Below are positions 38,683 through 50,298 of a DNA stretch of 64,000 bases, piece by piece. The notes under the pieces were generated by a model. The model made no database searches and had not been told where the DNA came from. It saw only the letters and a program-made list of their open reading frames with translations. Source of the DNA: Methanobacteriota archaeon (GTDB lineage: Archaea; Methanobacteriota; Methanobacteria; Methanobacteriales; Methanobacteriaceae); NCBI GenBank assembly GCA_963787255.1, contig CAWBCJ010000025.1:310398-374397 (forward strand). The letters are read 5' to 3'. The translations under genes were made by a program, and so were the position numbers. Position 1 is the stretch's first letter. Every line of letters starts with the position of its first letter.

Positions 38683-40842
38683 CGGTATAATTACGAAGAA
38701 ACTGTTATTTGTTGCTCTATTGATCGCCAGTTTATCTCTTGGCGGTATAGCCACTTCGAGCGCTGCAGAGGTAGATGCAACACAAATACAAACTTCAAAT
38801 ACCAACACTTTAATTAAAAATGAAAAAACTCAATCAAAAAGTGAAAATATTTCAGAAAATTCAACCAAAACGCAAAAATCGGTTGATGAAAGTGTTAAAA
38901 CGGTCCAAAAGACCGATAACAAAAAACAAGTAACTACAGAAAATACGGACATAGTAAAAAATGAGGAAACTAAGACCTCTAAGAGTTCAACTATCGTTCA
39001 AAAATCTAAAAATGTAGTTAAAACTAATGTTGCAAGTAGTTCAACAGCAAAGCAAGAGAATATTAATGATACAATTAACATTCAAAAATGCACTGTACAA
39101 AATAACGTAGACAATAAAGTCAACGTTTGTGCTGATGAAGCTTCTGTTAAAACTAGTGAAATAACAAAAACAGCTGAAACTCAAGTACCGCTAAATAACG
39201 ATACAACAGTAACTAATTCAATTAACAATTCAATAATCAATTCAGTTAACAATTCAATAACCAATTCAGTTAACAATTCAACAAATCCAGTAAACAACCA
39301 ATCTACAACTAATGATACAACAAATTATAATGAATATTATGACGCAGCTGCAGGAGACACAACCTCTCCATCAATAACCACATCTACACCAACAACAACT
39401 TTCACCGTAGCTCAAATAAAGGACGCATCATCCAGAGTAAGAGCATACATCGAAAACAATCACCAATTACCAAGCTACGTACAAATATCAACATATCAGA
39501 TTAACATGTCCCAGTTTTTGGAAATGTTAACTTCAGCATTACTACAGATTAACAGTGGAACAAACAATCCTATAGTATGTAAAGTCATTCACTGCTCCTA
39601 CAAGTCCACAAGACAACATTCGTACAGGAAATATTCCTAAATCAGAATATCTAAAGATTGCAAACGACATCAAAAACTACATGGACACTAATGGAAAAAC
39701 ACCAGACTACGCATACCAGACAAGTCTGGGAACATACCTTGGATACCAAAACCTGGTCTACATGTACAGCATGATCCTAGATTACCACAAAACCAGTGGT
39801 AAGATGGCAGATTTCGCAATGATGAAACCATGGTCAGCTGTTAAGATAGCTGCATCTGGAACAGCAGGTGATCCATCTGTAGCTCCTACAACACTCACAA
39901 ATGCTCCAAATGGAACATCTTTTACTGTAACTCAGATAAAAGACGCATCATCCAGAGTAAGAGCATACATCGAAAACAATAAAAAATTACCTACATCTGT
40001 GCAAATATCATCATATCAGATTAACATGTCCCAGTTTTTGGAAATGTTAACTTCAGCATTACTACAGATTAACAGTGGAACAAACAATCCTATAGTTGTA
40101 AAGTCATTCACTGCTCCTACAAGTCCACAAGACAACATTCGTACAGGAAATATTCCTAAATCAGAATACTTAAAGATTGCAAACGACATCAAAAACTACA
40201 TGGACACTAATGGAAAAACACCAGACTACGCATACAAAACAAGCCTAGGAACATACCTTGGATACCAAAACCTGGTCTACATGTACAGCATGATCCTAGA
40301 TTACCACAAAACCAGTGGTAAGATGGCAGATTTCGCAATGATGAAACCATGGTCAGTTGTACTTGGTGGATCTAGTGTTCCTGCAGATTTACAGCAATAC
40401 ATTGCAGCAACTGCAAACTGTCAAGTAAACGATGGTAGTATCAACGCACTGGCATATTCAATTACAGTAGGTTCAACTTCCCAATATGATAAGGCAGTAA
40501 GAATATTTAACTGGGTAAGAGACAACTTAAGTTACTCATTCTACTACAACACCAAGTATGGTGCAGTAGGTGCAATGAATGCAAGAACAGGTAACTGTGT
40601 TGACACAGCCCACCTTCATAGTAGCTCTTGAAAGGGCAGCTGGAATTCCAGCACGATATGAGCATCTTTATGCTCAGTTTTCAAGTGGTTCTTGGTATGG
40701 ACACGTTATTGCTCAAGTTTGGGTAGATGGTAAATGGTACAATGCAGATGGATCAAGTAATTACAATACATTTGGTGCAATAAATAACTGGAATACAGGT
40801 ACAGCAACAATCTACGGAACATATGTTTCATTGCCTTTCTAG
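38669..40842 (+). CDS. Secreted pseudomurein-binding-repeat protein with C-terminal transglutaminase-like domain (frameshifts near 39577 and 40615)
   Basis: Signal peptide, T/N/S-rich linker, repeated A.RV..YIE.N..LP..V.I repeats, triad GNCVD / GHV.AQ / WYNADG. Confidence 0.85.
39215..39280 (+). repeat. 12-bp coding tandem repeat ([16 protein letters not shown])
   Basis: AATTCA(A/G)T.A.C units repeated about 6 times. Confidence 0.7.
39422..40356 (+). repeat. Near-identical intragenic duplication, about 415 bp (39422-39837 and 39942-40356)
   Basis: GACGCATCATCCAGAGTAAGAGC...AAACCATGGTCAG occurs twice, offset 519-520 bp. Confidence 0.9.
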
Positions 40843-43278: not shown

Positions 43279-43563
43279 TTAAGGATTTGAAGTATTAGTG
43301 ATGTTACTAGTGCTTTTGTTTTCTATATAAATTGATTCTGAATTTGTGTTATCGGGGTTGGTAGTGGTTTGGGGTTCTGTATGAGTGTTTACATTTTTTG
43401 TAGATTGAATTTGAGGCATTTCCTGAGTATTATTAACTTTTGTAGTGTTTGGAGTATCATTTTGGGATAAACCCATTACTATTCCTGCTCCTGACCCACA
43501 CCCAAAGGCAATTAAAGCTATTATCAATGCAATTATTGCTTTCGCTTCTGTTTCCGGCTTCAT
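43279..43563 (-). CDS. Small membrane-anchored T/N-rich protein
   Basis: N-terminal TM helix followed by a low-complexity tail. Confidence 0.6.
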   Translation of the reverse strand: MKPETEAKAIIALIIALIAFGCGSGAGIVMGLSQNDTPNTTKVNNTQEMPQIQSTKNVNTHTEPQTTTNPDNTNSESIYIENKSTSNITNTSNP

Positions 43564-43657: not shown

Positions 43658-44863
43658 CTAAGTTGCCACTGCATACAAAAGGGCTAAAAATATGGATATT
43701 ACTCCAAATTCCCAATATCCAACACTCCATCCCACGAAAGTAGCTACAAATACGAAGATGAATATTAAAAATGCCTTGGCTTTTCCATTCATTAAAAAAT
43801 CCATGACTGCCTTGGTGAATTCTGATGGAATATAATATGCATAAGTTCCATCTGCAATGTCAAAGACCATTACTGGACTGTTATTCCAAACTTTAATTCC
43901 GTCGGCCATTTGGGCTCGTTCTCCAGATTCTCGCCTGCTTTTCCCGATTCCTGCCCTTAATCTTGCGCCGTGATTTAAAGCATGCCATGCCGAATCAATA
44001 CCCGCTCTTAATGCTGCATCCTTTGTCGGTAAATTGGCGACTAAATCATCGCCACCTTCCCTGTAACCTTCAATTTTACCGTCACATTCTTTTTCAATGA
44101 AATTTTTAATTCCAGTCATTATTTCAACAAGCTTGTCACGCCCGTTTTCTTCTATAAATTTTGTAGAGTCAATTATATCAATAAATAAGTAATTATCATA
44201 AACTGCCGGGGTTCCCTTGGGTGTTTCAATTTTTGCAGAAAATACTATTGCAAACTCGCCTCCAAGCTTGGTAAATCCAACTCCTGCACTTTCCCCAATT
44301 TGTTTGTTTAAATTAATTGCTCTTTCGATGGCTGCTGCACCTGTCATTCCAACTGAAGCCCTTACATGAGTATTCTTTTCCATACCCAGCCCTATTAGCT
44401 CAATTGCAACCCTTATTGCATCGTTTTTTGAAAGAAGCTTGGCTACAATTTCAGATCGACTTTGTTCGATAATTGTACCCTTTTCTTTTTTAATAATGCT
44501 TGCAAATTCTCTGATAATGGGATCCTTTTCAAAAACTTCGATATAGAGATATCGGTCGCTTCCCATTATAATGTTGCTTAAAAGTGCATATTCATCTACC
44601 TTATTTTCTGCAGGCTCTATTTCTATGAATTTTCTACCTTCAGGAATGTTTTCAGTTCCAACTTCTTTTACCAGGTTTTGGAAAATGTTTTGGGTCGTAA
44701 TATGTGCACGATCAACTTCCAGGAGCATTGTTCGAGTGTAATTAATCATTTCTACGTATTCTCGTTCCCTGTCGTTGGTTGGGTAGTATTTGGTGCCTAT
44801 GCTTAGTACTTTTGATTTAACAAAAAATCCAAAAAGGCCTCTTATTAGATAATCCATGACCAT
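43658..44863 (-). CDS. Membrane-anchored nucleotidyl-cyclase/GGDD palm-fold protein
   Basis: YLFIDIIDSTKF and REGGDDLVA...LRAGIG; a degenerate N-terminal copy of the domain; two C-terminal TM helices. Confidence 0.65.
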   Translation of the reverse strand: MVMDYLIRGLFGFFVKSKVLSIGTKYYPTNDREREYVEMINYTRTMLLEVDRAHITTQNIFQNLVKEVGTENIPEGRKFIEIEPAENKVDEYALLSNIIMGSDRYLYIEVFEKDPIIREFASIIKKEKGTIIEQSRSEIVAKLLSKNDAIRVAIELIGLGMEKNTHVRASVGMTGAAAIERAINLNKQIGESAGVGFTKLGGEFAIVFSAKIETPKGTPAVYDNYLFIDIIDSTKFIEENGRDKLVEIMTGIKNFIEKECDGKIEGYREGGDDLVANLPTKDAALRAGIDSAWHALNHGARLRAGIGKSRRESGERAQMADGIKVWNNSPVMVFDIADGTYAYYIPSEFTKAVMDFLMNGKAKAFLIFIFVFVATFVGWSVGYWEFGVISIFLALLYAVAT

Positions 44864-44904
44864 TTTAATGTTATCCTCCTTAAGTAAGAAGATGAATTTA
44901 ATAT

Positions 44905-45927
44905 TTATTTTTCTGGTTTTTCTAAAACAATTTCGAATTCTCCAGGCTTTTCCATTAGCATGCTCGGTTTAACAGCTACAATTGGGAATTTCCATGTCCC
45001 GATCCTTGCAGCTACGGTACTGGCTATATTTCTGGAGTTTTTCTTAACGAATGCGTAATCATGATCATTAATGGTTATATTAACGTTATATTTTGATTCT
45101 TCACCTACTTCATCAGAATAAAGAATATTAAGCTCAAAAGATCCTGGTTTTGTAAATAAATCGTTTCTTATAGCCACCAGAGGGGCATGATCTAATTTTA
45201 ATCTATCTCCAACAGTTACAGCAATATTTCCTGCATATCTAACTGCATCTTTGTAATCCCGGGGACTTACAAGAACAAAAATGATGAAATCGCTTGTTTT
45301 TTCAGCGTCTTCAACCATACTCATTACTTTATCAAATAAAGGAATCTTCATTAATAGGTCTTCCATCTTAGAATCGATTCCTTCATCTTTGCTTTTGGTA
45401 ATCCTATCAATTGCTTCTTTTGCTACTGCTATACCACTTAACTTTTTGCTTTTTTTAACTTTATAAGCATCTATTCCTTTTTTTTCAAATTCGTTAATGG
45501 TCTGGTTGCAAATTTTTTGAAGAATGTTCTTGATTTTTTTGGGCCTGGAAGATGTTCCAATAATTATCTGCCCGTCTTTTATATTGTATGGAATTCTTTT
45601 ACTTGCAATATCCTTAAATTCATCGTTATATTCTCTAAATATGTCATTGGAAAGTATTTTAGCATCTTCTTCATATGCCCTATTTAAAATAAAATGATCT
45701 GCCGTTGTGCCTGCTGGAACCTGTTGAATTTTTCCTTCTTCTAAAAGTGTATTAAATTCTTCTTTTCTATCTATTTCATGTCTAAGCGATGCATCAGCTA
45801 TGGCATAGGGTTTGTAACCAAGATCTTTTAAGGATTCAATTGCCTTTAGCACATGGTCCAGACTTGGTTTTGATTCTTTTCCCTTTTTGAAGTGAGCTAC
45901 GTTGGCAGCGTCAATAACTATTTTCAA
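44905..45927 (-). CDS. Zc3h12a-like (NYN/PIN) ribonuclease with C-terminal extension
   Basis: IVIDAANVA, IADASLRH, VPAGTTADHFIL, ILSNDIFREY. Confidence 0.8.
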   Translation of the reverse strand: MKIVIDAANVAHFKKGKESKPSLDHVLKAIESLKDLGYKPYAIADASLRHEIDRKEEFNTLLEEGKIQQVPAGTTADHFILNRAYEEDAKILSNDIFREYNDEFKDIASKRIPYNIKDGQIIIGTSSRPKKIKNILQKICNQTINEFEKKGIDAYKVKKSKKLSGIAVAKEAIDRITKSKDEGIDSKMEDLLMKIPLFDKVMSMVEDAEKTSDFIIFVLVSPRDYKDAVRYAGNIAVTVGDRLKLDHAPLVAIRNDLFTKPGSFELNILYSDEVGEESKYNVNITINDHDYAFVKKNSRNIASTVAARIGTWKFPIVAVKPSMLMEKPGEFEIVLEKPEK

Positions 45928-46679
45928 TTAATCACCTTACACATATTTTCATACTTTGCAAGAATTCTGGAATTCCCATCAGCCTGATTTAATACTATTT
46001 CTACATTATCCTCTTTAATATTAATTGTATTGAATGAACAAATATCCTTTCCCCTAAGTTTTAGAGATGATACAGTTCCCGCTGTAACGAAAGCTGTATT
46101 TTCAAGTTGCCATGCGTGAGGCACATGTTTATGCCCAGAAAGCACAAGATCAGCATTTCCTTCAATAACTGACTTTAATATATCTCCTGCATCAGTTAAA
46201 ACGTTTCTTTCACGGCCTGTCTTTGGAATAGGGATCAAATGATGGTGCAGAGCAATCATTTTATATAAATTCTTTTTTCCGGCAAATTTAAGCTCAGTCT
46301 CCATTTTTTTCTGCTGTGCTCTTCCAACCTTCCCATAATCAAGATCGGGTTCGCTACTATCCAACCCTATGGCCTTTATTTCATTAGTTCTAACGTTTAA
46401 ATTTCCGCAACGTTTTTTTATTAGTTCTTCAAAGCATTCGTTCCCTATATGCCGTGCATCATGGTTTCCCGGAACAACAAGCAGCGGACTTTCAATTAAA
46501 TCCATGTATTTAGCTGCTTTTTCAAATTCAGCGTAATAACCATTTTCAGTTATATCACCTGTAACAATAACTAGATCAGTATCAAACTCATTAACCTTAT
46601 TTATGGCACTTATTAAAAAATCTTCTTTAAAATTTATAGCGCCAATGTGAATGTCAGATAAATGAGCGATAAACACCAT
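45924..46679 (-). CDS. Calcineurin-like metallophosphoesterase (Icc/CpdA-like)
   Basis: SDIH, TGD, PGNHD, HHH, SGHKH motifs. Confidence 0.9.
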   Translation of the reverse strand: MVFIAHLSDIHIGAINFKEDFLISAINKVNEFDTDLVIVTGDITENGYYAEFEKAAKYMDLIESPLLVVPGNHDARHIGNECFEELIKKRCGNLNVRTNEIKAIGLDSSEPDLDYGKVGRAQQKKMETELKFAGKKNLYKMIALHHHLIPIPKTGRERNVLTDAGDILKSVIEGNADLVLSGHKHVPHAWQLENTAFVTAGTVSSLKLRGKDICSFNTINIKEDNVEIVLNQADGNSRILAKYENMCKVIN

Positions 46680-46681
46680 TT

Positions 46682-47031
46682 TCAGCTTAACCTCATAATT
46701 GCTTCTGCAAGGTCTCCATTTGTTTCTTTAAGCGCATTAAGTGCTTTTTCCTTGCTTACGCCGGTTTGGGCTGAAACCAGTTCTACATCTTCATCAGGTA
46801 CTACAAGTTCAGTTTCGATTTTTCTTTCTTTGGGTTTACCTGTTATCTGGTATGTTTTCTGTCCCATAAAATCCATTATATTTACCTTGGGGTTAGTTAT
46901 AACGATTTCTTTATCCTTAAATTTTATAATAACTTCTGTAGCGCCTTTAATATCTTTCATATCCATGCCCATCTGTTTCATGGATCTTTGCATTTGTTTT
47001 AATTGCTTAGGGTTCATTCCCGCACCAGGTA

Positions 47032-47035
<4 letters not shown>
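46682..47035 (-). CDS. nac: Nascent polypeptide-associated complex protein
   Basis: MNPKQLKQMQRSMKQMGM...NPKV..M...YQI; C-terminal UBA (DV.LV..QTGVS.E.A..AL...GDLAEAI). Confidence 0.93.
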
Positions 47036-49040
<2,005 letters not shown>

Positions 49041-49056
49041 TTATTTCACCTTTTAA

Positions 49057-50298
49057 TTAAAATAATAAGTTATTATATGTTATATCCTCTTCAATAATTA
49101 TTGACAATCTATTCATCATTTCATTTATTCTACCCTTAGAACTATCAATTTTTCCCATTCCACAACTACAAATACACTCCTCAAATTGAGGGCAAACAAT
49201 ATAAGCAGCCTTCTTTGACATCAAATCATCAATTCCAAGTAGATTGATATTTTTTAGAACCCTTCTTTTAAGTCTGGAATCATCCACATTTCTTCATATA
49301 AATATAAAGGCGTTTTTACAGTTGATGCAAATTTTTGAACACCCCTTACAGACTTCCGTTCAATCTCACGTCTATTCAATATTTCAGCAGACGATTCATT
49401 TAATTCGGAATCTCTAAATGGAATTCCAGCATCACTAAGGGCAACCATCCGTTCGTCTTTACATGAAAGAGATTTTTCAATAATTTCAAGATTTTTTGCC
49501 GCTACAGTTCCACCACTTCTTCCAAATTGAGGTCCTACCCCTATATGAAGTCCTGCTTGAACCATTGCGGATCTTACAGGCGCTGCAGAAGTGTAAGTAA
49601 GGATAATACCATCATCCGGTAAAAGGTTTTTTAATTTAATGAAAAATTCTAGGGTGTACAATTCAGGACATTTAGAAGGCGAGAACGGATCCAAAAACAC
49701 GGCATCATACTTCTTTTCACCTTCAAATCCTTTAATTACATTCTCTCGCATCATTTAAATGTATGTTGATATTTATTCTATCGGGTATTTCACTTTTATG
49801 AAATTTAAATCTCAAACTCCCATCTTCAAATAACTTCTCTTCTATTACCTTTTTAATAATTTCATAGGATTCTACCGGATTTTCAATTAAAAGCGAAGCT
49901 GCAACAGTCTCTTTAGATATTTCCACCATATCAATTTCAATTTCGACTTCATCATCTAAAAATTCAATGCATGAAGCAGCATTATAACCTAAACCACTGC
50001 ATATATCCAGAACACGAACTTTTCCCTTACCTTCTAGTCGTGCAGGTTTTACAAATTTTTCCAATGATTCTTTTATAGCACCATGATGAGTATGCATTGT
50101 TTCTGAATTTCCATTATGAGAATTAGAATTAAGGGTATACGATCCGTCTTCAGTTTTAACTAGATACTTTTTTAAATCTAATTCAGCTTTTTTCCTTGCT
50201 TCTCTATCTCCCATTTTTTCGTTTTTGAACCAATTTCTAACGATTTCCATGGCTTCATCAGCTGGAGTTAAGGGTTGATATCCATTTTCTATTATCAT
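49057..50298 (-). CDS. MnmC/MnmD-like SAM methyltransferase (two frameshifts, near 49740 and 49280)
   Basis: TEDGSYTL..ETMH..GA..ES..KF, LDICSGLGYN, FLDPFSP..PELY; Cys-rich tail. Confidence 0.75.

Follow-up and report, generated by a model that had tools for sequence, protein, structure and literature searches.

A conserved gene pair for a cyclase-like tandem-palm membrane protein and its upstream partner in pseudomurein methanogens

The locus and the palm protein

The window analysed here is a 64,000-nt stretch of contig CAWBCJ010000025.1 (positions 310,398 to 374,397 of the forward strand; assembly GCA_963787255.1) from an archaeon of the Methanobacteriaceae, and the genes under study are three minus-strand open reading frames (ORFs) at window positions 43658-46679. 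In the direction of transcription they encode a phosphodiesterase (PDE) of 251 aa (45924..46679); a protein of 340 aa with a TTG start (44905..45927), here called the NYN-CTD protein for its NYN ribonuclease domain and its C-terminal domain (CTD); and a membrane-anchored, cyclase-like protein of 401 aa with two tandem palm domains, here called the palm protein (43658..44863). The bases TTGA are common to the TGA stop of the PDE gene and the TTG start of the NYN gene, with AGGTGAT immediately upstream, and the NYN stop is separated by 41 nt from the palm ATG at 44863; inside that spacing, 11 nt before the ATG, lies a GGAGG ribosome-binding site (44875..44879, minus strand). These features can all be read in the sequence, and the gene layout given in a first-pass annotation of the window, i.e., three minus-strand genes with a 4-nt overlap, a 41-nt gap and a GGAGG, is therefore correct. 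That annotation took the three genes for a single nucleotide second-messenger module. Our analysis shows instead that the supposed three-part module is two independent conserved pairs, one consisting of the NYN/CTD and palm genes and the other of the PDE gene and nac, the gene for the nascent polypeptide-associated complex (NAC) protein. The NYN/CTD-palm pair is probably an undescribed nucleotide-signalling or RNA-control unit. Knowledge of nucleotide second messengers in methanogens is very scant.

The AlphaFold model of the palm protein (predicted local distance difference test score, pLDDT, 86.4; predicted template-modelling score, pTM, 0.75) begins with an alpha/beta domain, residues 1-100 (44564..44863, minus strand, as are the features that follow), in which G23, T24 and N41 are invariant and for which hhalign found no similarity to either palm domain. 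Two palms follow, the first (N-palm) at residues 102-208 (44240..44560) and the second (C-palm), presumed to be the catalytic one, at residues 222-344 (43832..44200). The order of secondary-structure elements in residues 104-208 recurs in residues 224-344, and the N-palm matched the C-palm in hhalign with a probability of 97.5% (E = 5.6e-12, 106 columns). Because of the repeated element order and this profile match, the protein is taken to be internally duplicated, with two palms in tandem. The chain ends in a membrane hairpin, residues 361-400 (43664..43783), modelled as hydrophobic helices at 361-381 and 385-400, and these are the two C-terminal transmembrane helices reported by the first-pass annotation. 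An otherwise unrelated protein of 251 aa, P0160, has at its C-terminus a match to the final 65 palm-protein residues, the common segment being the final hairpin, an amphipathic helix and the membrane hairpin. The N-terminal part of P0160 carries a D-x-S-x-S motif that presumably resembles those of von Willebrand A domains. Since the same tail recurs in an unrelated protein, the palm anchor looks like a separable module.

A Foldseek search with the palm model returned 53 PDB chains at E <= 0.001, the leading matches being adenylyl cyclase 9, light-regulated cyclases, GTP cyclohydrolase III (GCH III), Csm1 and mycobacterial cyclases, with target-normalised template-modelling (TM) scores of 0.48-0.54 for single domains. 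When the palm family profile was compared with PDB sequences, residues 217-310 matched two solved class III cyclases, Rv1900c (1ybt) with E = 3.7e-4 and Ma1120 with E = 0.023-0.038. These alignments place FIDIIDST (residues 227-234) on FTDIVGST, GGDD (residues 270-273) on the GD hairpin, and R-x-GIG on RIGIH, and they bring D229 and D272 into register with the motifs that carry the two metal-binding aspartates in Rv1900c and Ma1120; in class III cyclases these motifs supply the metal ligands. Conservation was assessed in an alignment of 29 palm homologues, to which the Methanobacteria contributed 22 and the Methanopyrus lineage 7. Within the C-palm, D229, S233, G270-G271-D272-D273, K281, G305, G307 and E315 are invariant in all 29, position 268 is R or K, and R316 is kept in 19. 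The FIDIIDST and GGDD motifs on which the first-pass annotation had based its superfamily placement are thus present, and the placement itself is supported by the profile match to cyclases, the Foldseek matches and the invariant aspartates: sequence and model together indicate a palm-domain member of the class III cyclase/GGDEF/Cas10 superfamily with its metal-binding aspartates intact.

The N-palm is degenerate at the metal-ligand positions. The equivalents of the acidic ligands are E109, kept in 22 of the 29 homologues, and E138, kept in 26, and E109 and E138 are not kept in the Methanopyrus-lineage rows. R104, K146, E180, R181, K199 and E203 of the N-palm are invariant in 29/29. In adenylyl cyclase C1/C2 and in Palm1/Palm2 of Cas10, a degenerate domain serves one catalytic domain, and by analogy the degenerate N-palm would serve the presumed catalytic C-palm in the same way.

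With the class III cyclases (Rv1900c, Ma1120 and mammalian C1/C2) the palm protein shares the palm fold, the F-x-D-I-x-x-S-T strand, the R/K-x-x-G-D hairpin and the R-x-G-I-G strand; with mammalian adenylyl cyclase C1/C2 it also shares the presence of two homologous domains per unit, one of them degenerate, which in the palm protein lie in one chain. It differs from them in falling below the Pfam model, in having palms of only ~105-125 residues each, in having GGDD instead of GD and no identified dimerisation arm or Asn/Arg pair, and in the addition of a C-terminal membrane hairpin and an N-terminal domain. With Cas10 (Csm1/Cmr2) and mCpol it has in common the GGDD in the active palm hairpin and the pairing of a synthase, here a putative one, with an effector gene, and with Cas10 the combination of a degenerate and an active palm; Csm1 chains matched the palm model at E 1.5e-4 to 3.8e-4. 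Unlike Cas10 and mCpol, it has no Pfam mCpol match, it was seen in no CRISPR or defence context, its partner carries no recognised CARF or SAVED-type sensor, and its gene is a core gene of the class rather than a mobile one. No Pfam or NCBIfam match was obtained for the palm protein, and likewise no Pfam match for 23 members of the family.

The upstream partner and the distribution of the pair

Residues 1-137 of the NYN-CTD protein (45517..45927, minus strand) form an NYN ribonuclease (RNase) domain of the Zc3h12a/Regnase type, with a score of 82.1 bits to PF11977 (RNase_Zc3h12a) against a cut-off of 23 over residues 2-137. The NYN family profile matched ZC3H12A/B/C and KHNYN in the PDB at E 2.6e-6 to 2.5e-4, and the target-normalised Foldseek TM-scores of the domain were 0.62-0.68. 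The active-site residues correspond to three blocks of ZC3H12C (IDGSNVA, D-x-F and SND), where one position that is DD in ZC3H12C reads AD in the window protein. The residues D6, N9, D45, D77 and S93-N94-D95 are kept in 17/17 Methanobacteria rows (alignment A2), in agreement with the intact acidic active site claimed in the first-pass annotation, and the domain is predicted from its sequence to be an intact endoribonuclease. The likeness to Regnase-1/ZC3H12 and KHNYN, which comprises sequence, fold and the kept acidic site, is that of the N-terminal 137 residues; the window protein differs from them in having no CCCH zinc finger and in the fusion of the NYN domain to a C-terminal region of ~200 residues.

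That region, the linker and CTD (residues 133-340; 44908..45531, minus strand), has two helices in the model, then a stretch of low confidence (181-211) and a core of alpha/beta type (214-336), and it is the part kept in the Methanopyrus-lineage partner described below. Residues 133-340 gave no family match. Foldseek with the full-length NYN model ranked only NYN/PIN matches and none to the CTD, and in hhalign comparisons of the CTD with each of the three palm-protein parts the probability never exceeded 0.3%. The invariant residues of the CTD, in the numbering of alignment A3, are R119, N120, D121, R164, S168, T169 and R173. For the stand-alone CTD of M. kandleri, the Atlas scores were 0.78-0.80 and count at best as leads.

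Of the genomes sampled, 120/121 of the order and 148/151 of the phylum carry the palm gene, with a single match per genome and one exception, in which the gene is split over two contigs; it is likewise present in 6/6 genomes of the Methanopyrus-like phylum. An exhaustive HMMER search over 1.84 billion representative proteins gave only 43 matches at E <= 0.001, which consisted of the protein's own full-length cluster, the distant full-length protein P0128 (29% identity), many fragments, and a few local matches. The relatives of P0128 come from a group of six high-GC archaeal genomes, and one partner protein of this group bears the source name Methanopyrus kandleri. The closest database relatives of the palm protein, with identities of up to 98%, bear the name Methanobacterium sp., and the window accordingly comes from a Methanobacterium. 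Within the reach of these searches, the family is confined to the Methanobacteria and the Methanopyrus lineage, which are the two lineages with pseudomurein walls.

Linkage of the pair was complete. The palm gene is directly preceded by the NYN/CTD gene in the window itself, in 16/16 diverse and 29/29 closer Methanobacteria loci, and in 6/6 Methanopyrus-lineage loci, for a total of 52/52, and in 14 of the 16 diverse loci the NYN stop and the palm start overlap or are no more than 1 nt apart. The coupling of the palm and NYN genes noted in the first-pass annotation accordingly holds in all 46 Methanobacteria loci. The Methanopyrus-lineage partner has a different composition. At all six loci, tblastn matched it only to residues 133-340 of the NYN-CTD protein (108-333 in L048 and L053), the open frames permit ~230 residues, the database proteins are 232-238 aa long, and PF11977 had no match in the one Methanopyrus-lineage genome searched. 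Because the partner in this lineage has no NYN domain, it is the CTD, and not the RNase, that is the palm protein's conserved partner, and the NYN RNase was gained in, or retained only by, the Methanobacteria. The role of effector that the first-pass annotation assigned to the NYN RNase therefore falls on a part of the protein that is not the conserved one, six Methanopyrus-lineage partners being CTD only.

The surroundings of the pair also differ between the two lineages. In the window its neighbours are nac and the PDE gene on one side and argJ on the other, whereas the Methanopyrus-lineage pair adjoins genes for aspartate kinase and thiC. The proximity of mnmC-like, tgtA and nac genes had been read as a link to translation or tRNA control; this gene order is confined to the class, and that link is not supported. 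The accompanying statement that the locus is no mobile defence island has held up well, as the palm gene is a single-copy core gene and PADLOC gave no match for the palm protein, the NYN-CTD protein or the stand-alone CTD. We read the pair as serving pseudomurein methanogens in a housekeeping function that is inherited vertically, and not as a defence system. Nearly every Methanobacteria genome has it, those of gut genera of the Methanobrevibacter type included, as does the Methanopyrus lineage, and it is essentially absent elsewhere. The palm protein and its partner are lineage-specific targets in organisms of medical and climate interest.

A pair of this kind has been listed before. Lupo et al. 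(2025, mSystems, PMC11915815) compared five pseudomurein with five other euryarchaeal proteomes for lineage-specific orthologous groups, and their 'cluster D' consists of OG0001213, Zc3h12a-like NYN with no transmembrane segment, and OG0001214, 'Nucleotide cyclase' with more than one, which are syntenic in the five pseudomurein archaea. Their comment is that cluster D belongs to nucleic acid metabolism or signal transduction and probably not to wall synthesis. Judged by these annotations, cluster D is very probably the same pair. The passages on cluster D cited here contain no domain analysis, no identification of the CTD as partner and no PDE, and the supplementary tables of the paper may hold more. 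In the literature searched, the pair was mentioned only in PMC11915815, whose Tables S1 and S2 may add annotation or distribution.

The phosphodiesterase and the function of the pair

The PDE is a calcineurin-like metallophosphoesterase of the Icc/CpdA/GpdQ type, scoring 63.3 bits to Pfam Metallophos against a cut-off of 21.5. Every block of the calcineurin-like metal motifs attributed to it in the first-pass annotation is present in the translation (D9-x-H11, G41-D42, G71-N72-H73-D74, H145-H147 and G182-H-K-H185), the closest relatives of known structure are Lmo2642 and the phosphohydrolase GpdQ (E ~1e-6), and the source annotations of its relatives are Icc or CpdA. It is thus like the Icc/CpdA/GpdQ enzymes in its motif blocks, and it differs from them in its score to the CpdA equivalog PRK11148, 47.2 bits, which is below the cut-off of 225, and in having nac as its conserved neighbour. 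The nac gene lies at 46682..47035 on the minus strand (TIGR00264, 138.8 bits; PF01849 and UBA_HYPK).

If the three genes formed one circuit after the manner of cyclic oligoadenylate (cOA) signalling in type III CRISPR systems, the palm protein would be the synthase, the NYN RNase the effector, and the PDE the dedicated degrader. Such a circuit would accord with the overlap of the PDE stop and NYN start in the window, with the location of the PDE gene between nac and the NYN gene in 14/16 diverse Methanobacteria loci and upstream in 27/29 short loci, and with a complete set of class III PDE-type metal motifs whose nearest structures are those named above. The position of the PDE gene, however, is not constant. 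Its spacing from the NYN gene in the diverse Methanobacteria loci varies from overlap to ~1.45 kb; in genome G029 the PDE orthologue is at 418 kb and the pair at 1,183 kb, ~760 kb apart; and in G048, which keeps the NYN-palm pair, no PDE orthologue was found. In 3/3 Methanopyrus-lineage genomes searched, the PDE orthologues (42-44% identity) are far from the palm gene or on another contig, and there the PDE gene follows a NAC-like gene: at L058 a 177-aa protein with the UBA_HYPK domain of NAC precedes the PDE with a 4-nt overlap, and at L059 a nac match adjoins it. Since nac and the PDE gene are a conserved pair, the position of the latter beside the NYN-palm pair is a matter of gene order within the Methanobacteria. 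The low score to the CpdA model also argues against a dedicated degrader. The PDE is a neighbour that belongs with nac, at most an opportunistic degrader of a signal, and we consider the three-part circuit unlikely. The PDE therefore drops out as the third arm of the module, and of the three-gene synteny the first-pass annotation proposed to check, the NYN/CTD-palm part was found at every locus and the PDE part was not constantly linked. Setting the PDE apart from the pair corrects the earlier finding.

Two loci show further variation around the PDE gene. At L038 4106-5560 (G087) the ~1.45 kb between the PDE and NYN genes leaves room for an inserted gene. At L046 4836-5557 (G020) tblastn recovers the PDE orthologue as two segments that lie in different frames, and the ORF ends after 196 aa; G020, whose NYN-palm pair is intact, may have a broken PDE.

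From gene order, distribution, fold, duplication and residue conservation, which are observed, we infer catalysis, a product, contact between the palm and partner proteins, and control of the RNase. The reading that we favour, with confidence about evenly balanced, is that of a two-gene operon in which the palm protein makes a nucleotide product and the CTD works with it, NYN cleavage being controlled in the Methanobacteria. The C-terminal helical hairpin would anchor the palm protein on the cytoplasmic face of the membrane. The two palms would pair as an intramolecular pseudo-heterodimer with one active site, like C1/C2 or Palm1/Palm2 of Cas10, in which D229 and D272/D273 would bind metals and the N-palm would contribute basic residues for the substrate, and the enzyme would convert nucleoside triphosphates to a cyclic or short oligomeric nucleotide. 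The CTD of the upstream protein would most likely bind this product, or the palm enzyme itself. In the Methanobacteria, where the CTD is joined to an NYN endoribonuclease domain that is intact, the output would be RNA cleavage under control, while in the Methanopyrus lineage the CTD would act as a stand-alone domain.

Several results weigh against a nucleotide-producing palm enzyme with a CTD receptor. Whole-chain TM-scores to tandem cyclases are low, 0.2-0.24 query-normalised, and leave the pseudo-dimer geometry unconfirmed. The class III cyclase family PF00211 has no match to the palm protein nor any in the whole genome, and at E <= 1 the genome has no match to GGDEF (PF00990) or mCpol (PF18182). 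Alignments with cyclases of known structure stop at residue 309-310, beyond which the C-palm has a helix at 310-322 and one hairpin; with a C-palm of ~123 residues and an alignment that ends at 310, the cyclase arm with its Asn/Arg pair is therefore not identified. As for the CTD, its profile gave 0 PDB sequence matches at E <= 10, and residues 135-340 had no usable Atlas match. The Methanopyrus-lineage partner is without an effector, and the CTD may thus be a subunit or an enzyme of its own rather than a receptor. A last point is that cAMP has been reported in a Methanobacterium, as cited in PMC6741144, and that the palm protein is not needed to explain it, because the genome has a gene of the CYTH family (C18:91176-91694, 113 bits). 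The idea that the palm protein is the sole possible source of cAMP is ruled out by this CYTH gene.

A second known nucleotide, c-di-AMP, was considered through the DAC domain of its synthase (PF02457). DAC was not found in the window's genome and was matched in 3/121 genomes of the order, in two of them over the cut-off; the sole strong match comes from an assembly of 490 contigs and is a fragment at a contig edge. DAC was present in the controls M. jannaschii, H. volcanii and M. acetivorans, and in 5/6 Methanopyrus-lineage genomes. The palm gene is also present in these five. A strict either/or of palm gene and DAC is thereby ruled out, and because the two coexist, the palm gene is no simple replacement of DAC. 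The pattern allows, and does not demonstrate, that the palm pathway may cover part of the c-di-AMP role in the Methanobacteriales.

A fuller version of the favoured reading, which we offer tentatively and regard as doubtful in its entirety, is that pseudomurein methanogens have their own housekeeping nucleotide-messenger pathway, made up of a duplicated membrane cyclase of a new family, a receptor of a new fold and, in the Methanobacteriales, an NYN RNase gated by that receptor, with the role of c-di-AMP possibly taken over in part. Such a pathway would be a case of second-messenger-controlled RNA decay outside a CRISPR or defence setting. If the palm protein is an active synthase, it would be a new branch of the cyclase/Cas10 palm superfamily and a rare example of an enzyme of this type established in the core genome instead of among mobile defence genes, and the CTD of its partner would be a new type of receptor or subunit.

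Instead of making a signal, the palm protein might work on RNA ends at the membrane as a nucleotidyltransferase or polymerase that needs no template, with the CTD holding the RNA and the NYN domain trimming it; the pair would then be a machine for RNA processing or tailing. The palm fold is common to polymerases, and Cas10 chains are among the Foldseek matches; the invariant R, N, D, S and T residues of the CTD would suit nucleic-acid or phosphate binding; the partner is fused to an RNase in the Methanobacteria; and the stand-alone CTD gave Atlas feature leads of 0.79 to NTP_transf_2 clusters, which are weak and, by the tool's own scale, no more than leads. Such Atlas scores, however, are also reached by one third of shuffled proteins, the nearest sequence relatives of the palm protein are cyclases and not polymerases, and no RNA-binding family was detected in either the NYN-CTD or the palm protein. 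An enzyme of this kind seems improbable to us.

In bacteria, the c-di-AMP synthase CdaA is linked to peptidoglycan synthesis, and by analogy the pair might serve the pseudomurein envelope, either through a membrane-proximal messenger for wall homeostasis or through nucleotide-linked precursor chemistry. The family is found only in the two pseudomurein lineages, the palm protein is membrane-anchored, 118/121 genomes of the order gave no DAC match, unlike the three euryarchaeal controls, and the pair was picked up by a pangenomic screen for pseudomurein genes (PMC11915815). The authors of that screen nevertheless place cluster D probably outside pseudomurein synthesis in the passages cited here (PMC11915815). 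The common distribution may merely mirror common ancestry, the pair lies here between nac/PDE and argJ and not beside the wall-synthesis clusters A and B, and five of the six Methanopyrus-lineage genomes carry DAC along with the palm gene. We judge an envelope role to be quite improbable.

Far less likely is a GCH III paralogue, i.e., a hydrolase of the same fold that makes no signalling nucleotide. GCH III has two palm-like halves, and the M. jannaschii enzyme (2qv6) is a Foldseek match to the palm protein over 255 columns (E = 6.8e-5), but the genome has a canonical GCH III elsewhere (C29:684840-685583, PF05165, 388 bits), to which the palm protein, itself without a PF05165 match, has an hhalign probability of 0.2%; a GCH III identity, the enzyme whose activity the first-pass annotation had named among its refuting outcomes, is rejected on these grounds. 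An anti-virus system of the mCpol/Panoptes or Pycsar kind is equally remote: a minimal GGDD palm with a nuclease partner, a weak PycC match of the Methanopyrus-lineage homologue P0128 (E = 0.034), and the coupling of mCpol with an effector in Panoptes systems are set against a single-copy gene with the same chromosomal context in almost every genome of the whole class, no PADLOC match for the palm or NYN-CTD protein, no match to Pfam mCpol, and a base composition that is even throughout the region.

Neighbouring genes in the window

Downstream of the palm gene, at 43279..43563 on the minus strand, lies a gene for a protein of 94 aa, which has a single hydrophobic helix at its N-terminus and a tail rich in T, N and P. 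By tblastn this protein is often encoded downstream of the palm gene, i.e., in 9/16 and 23/29 Methanobacteria loci, and the Methanopyrus-lineage loci yielded no convincing match to it. In the Methanobacteria, the unit might thus have this protein as a third member, embedded in the membrane.

On the other side of nac, a single frameshift near 48580 interrupts tgtA and two interrupt the mnmC-like gene (window 47032-49040 and 49057-50298, minus strand), and in the relative L043 the counterparts of these genes are single open frames of 665 and 407 aa. Three frameshifts in ~3.3 kb may be due to assembly indel error or to real decay. The PDE, NYN and palm genes are intact despite these frameshifts nearby. 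Further away, at window positions 39681-40842 on the plus strand, there are overlapping ORFs of 316 aa and 87 aa in different frames, the first with an internal repeat of ~50 residues, and this pair of ORFs may be another frameshifted gene.

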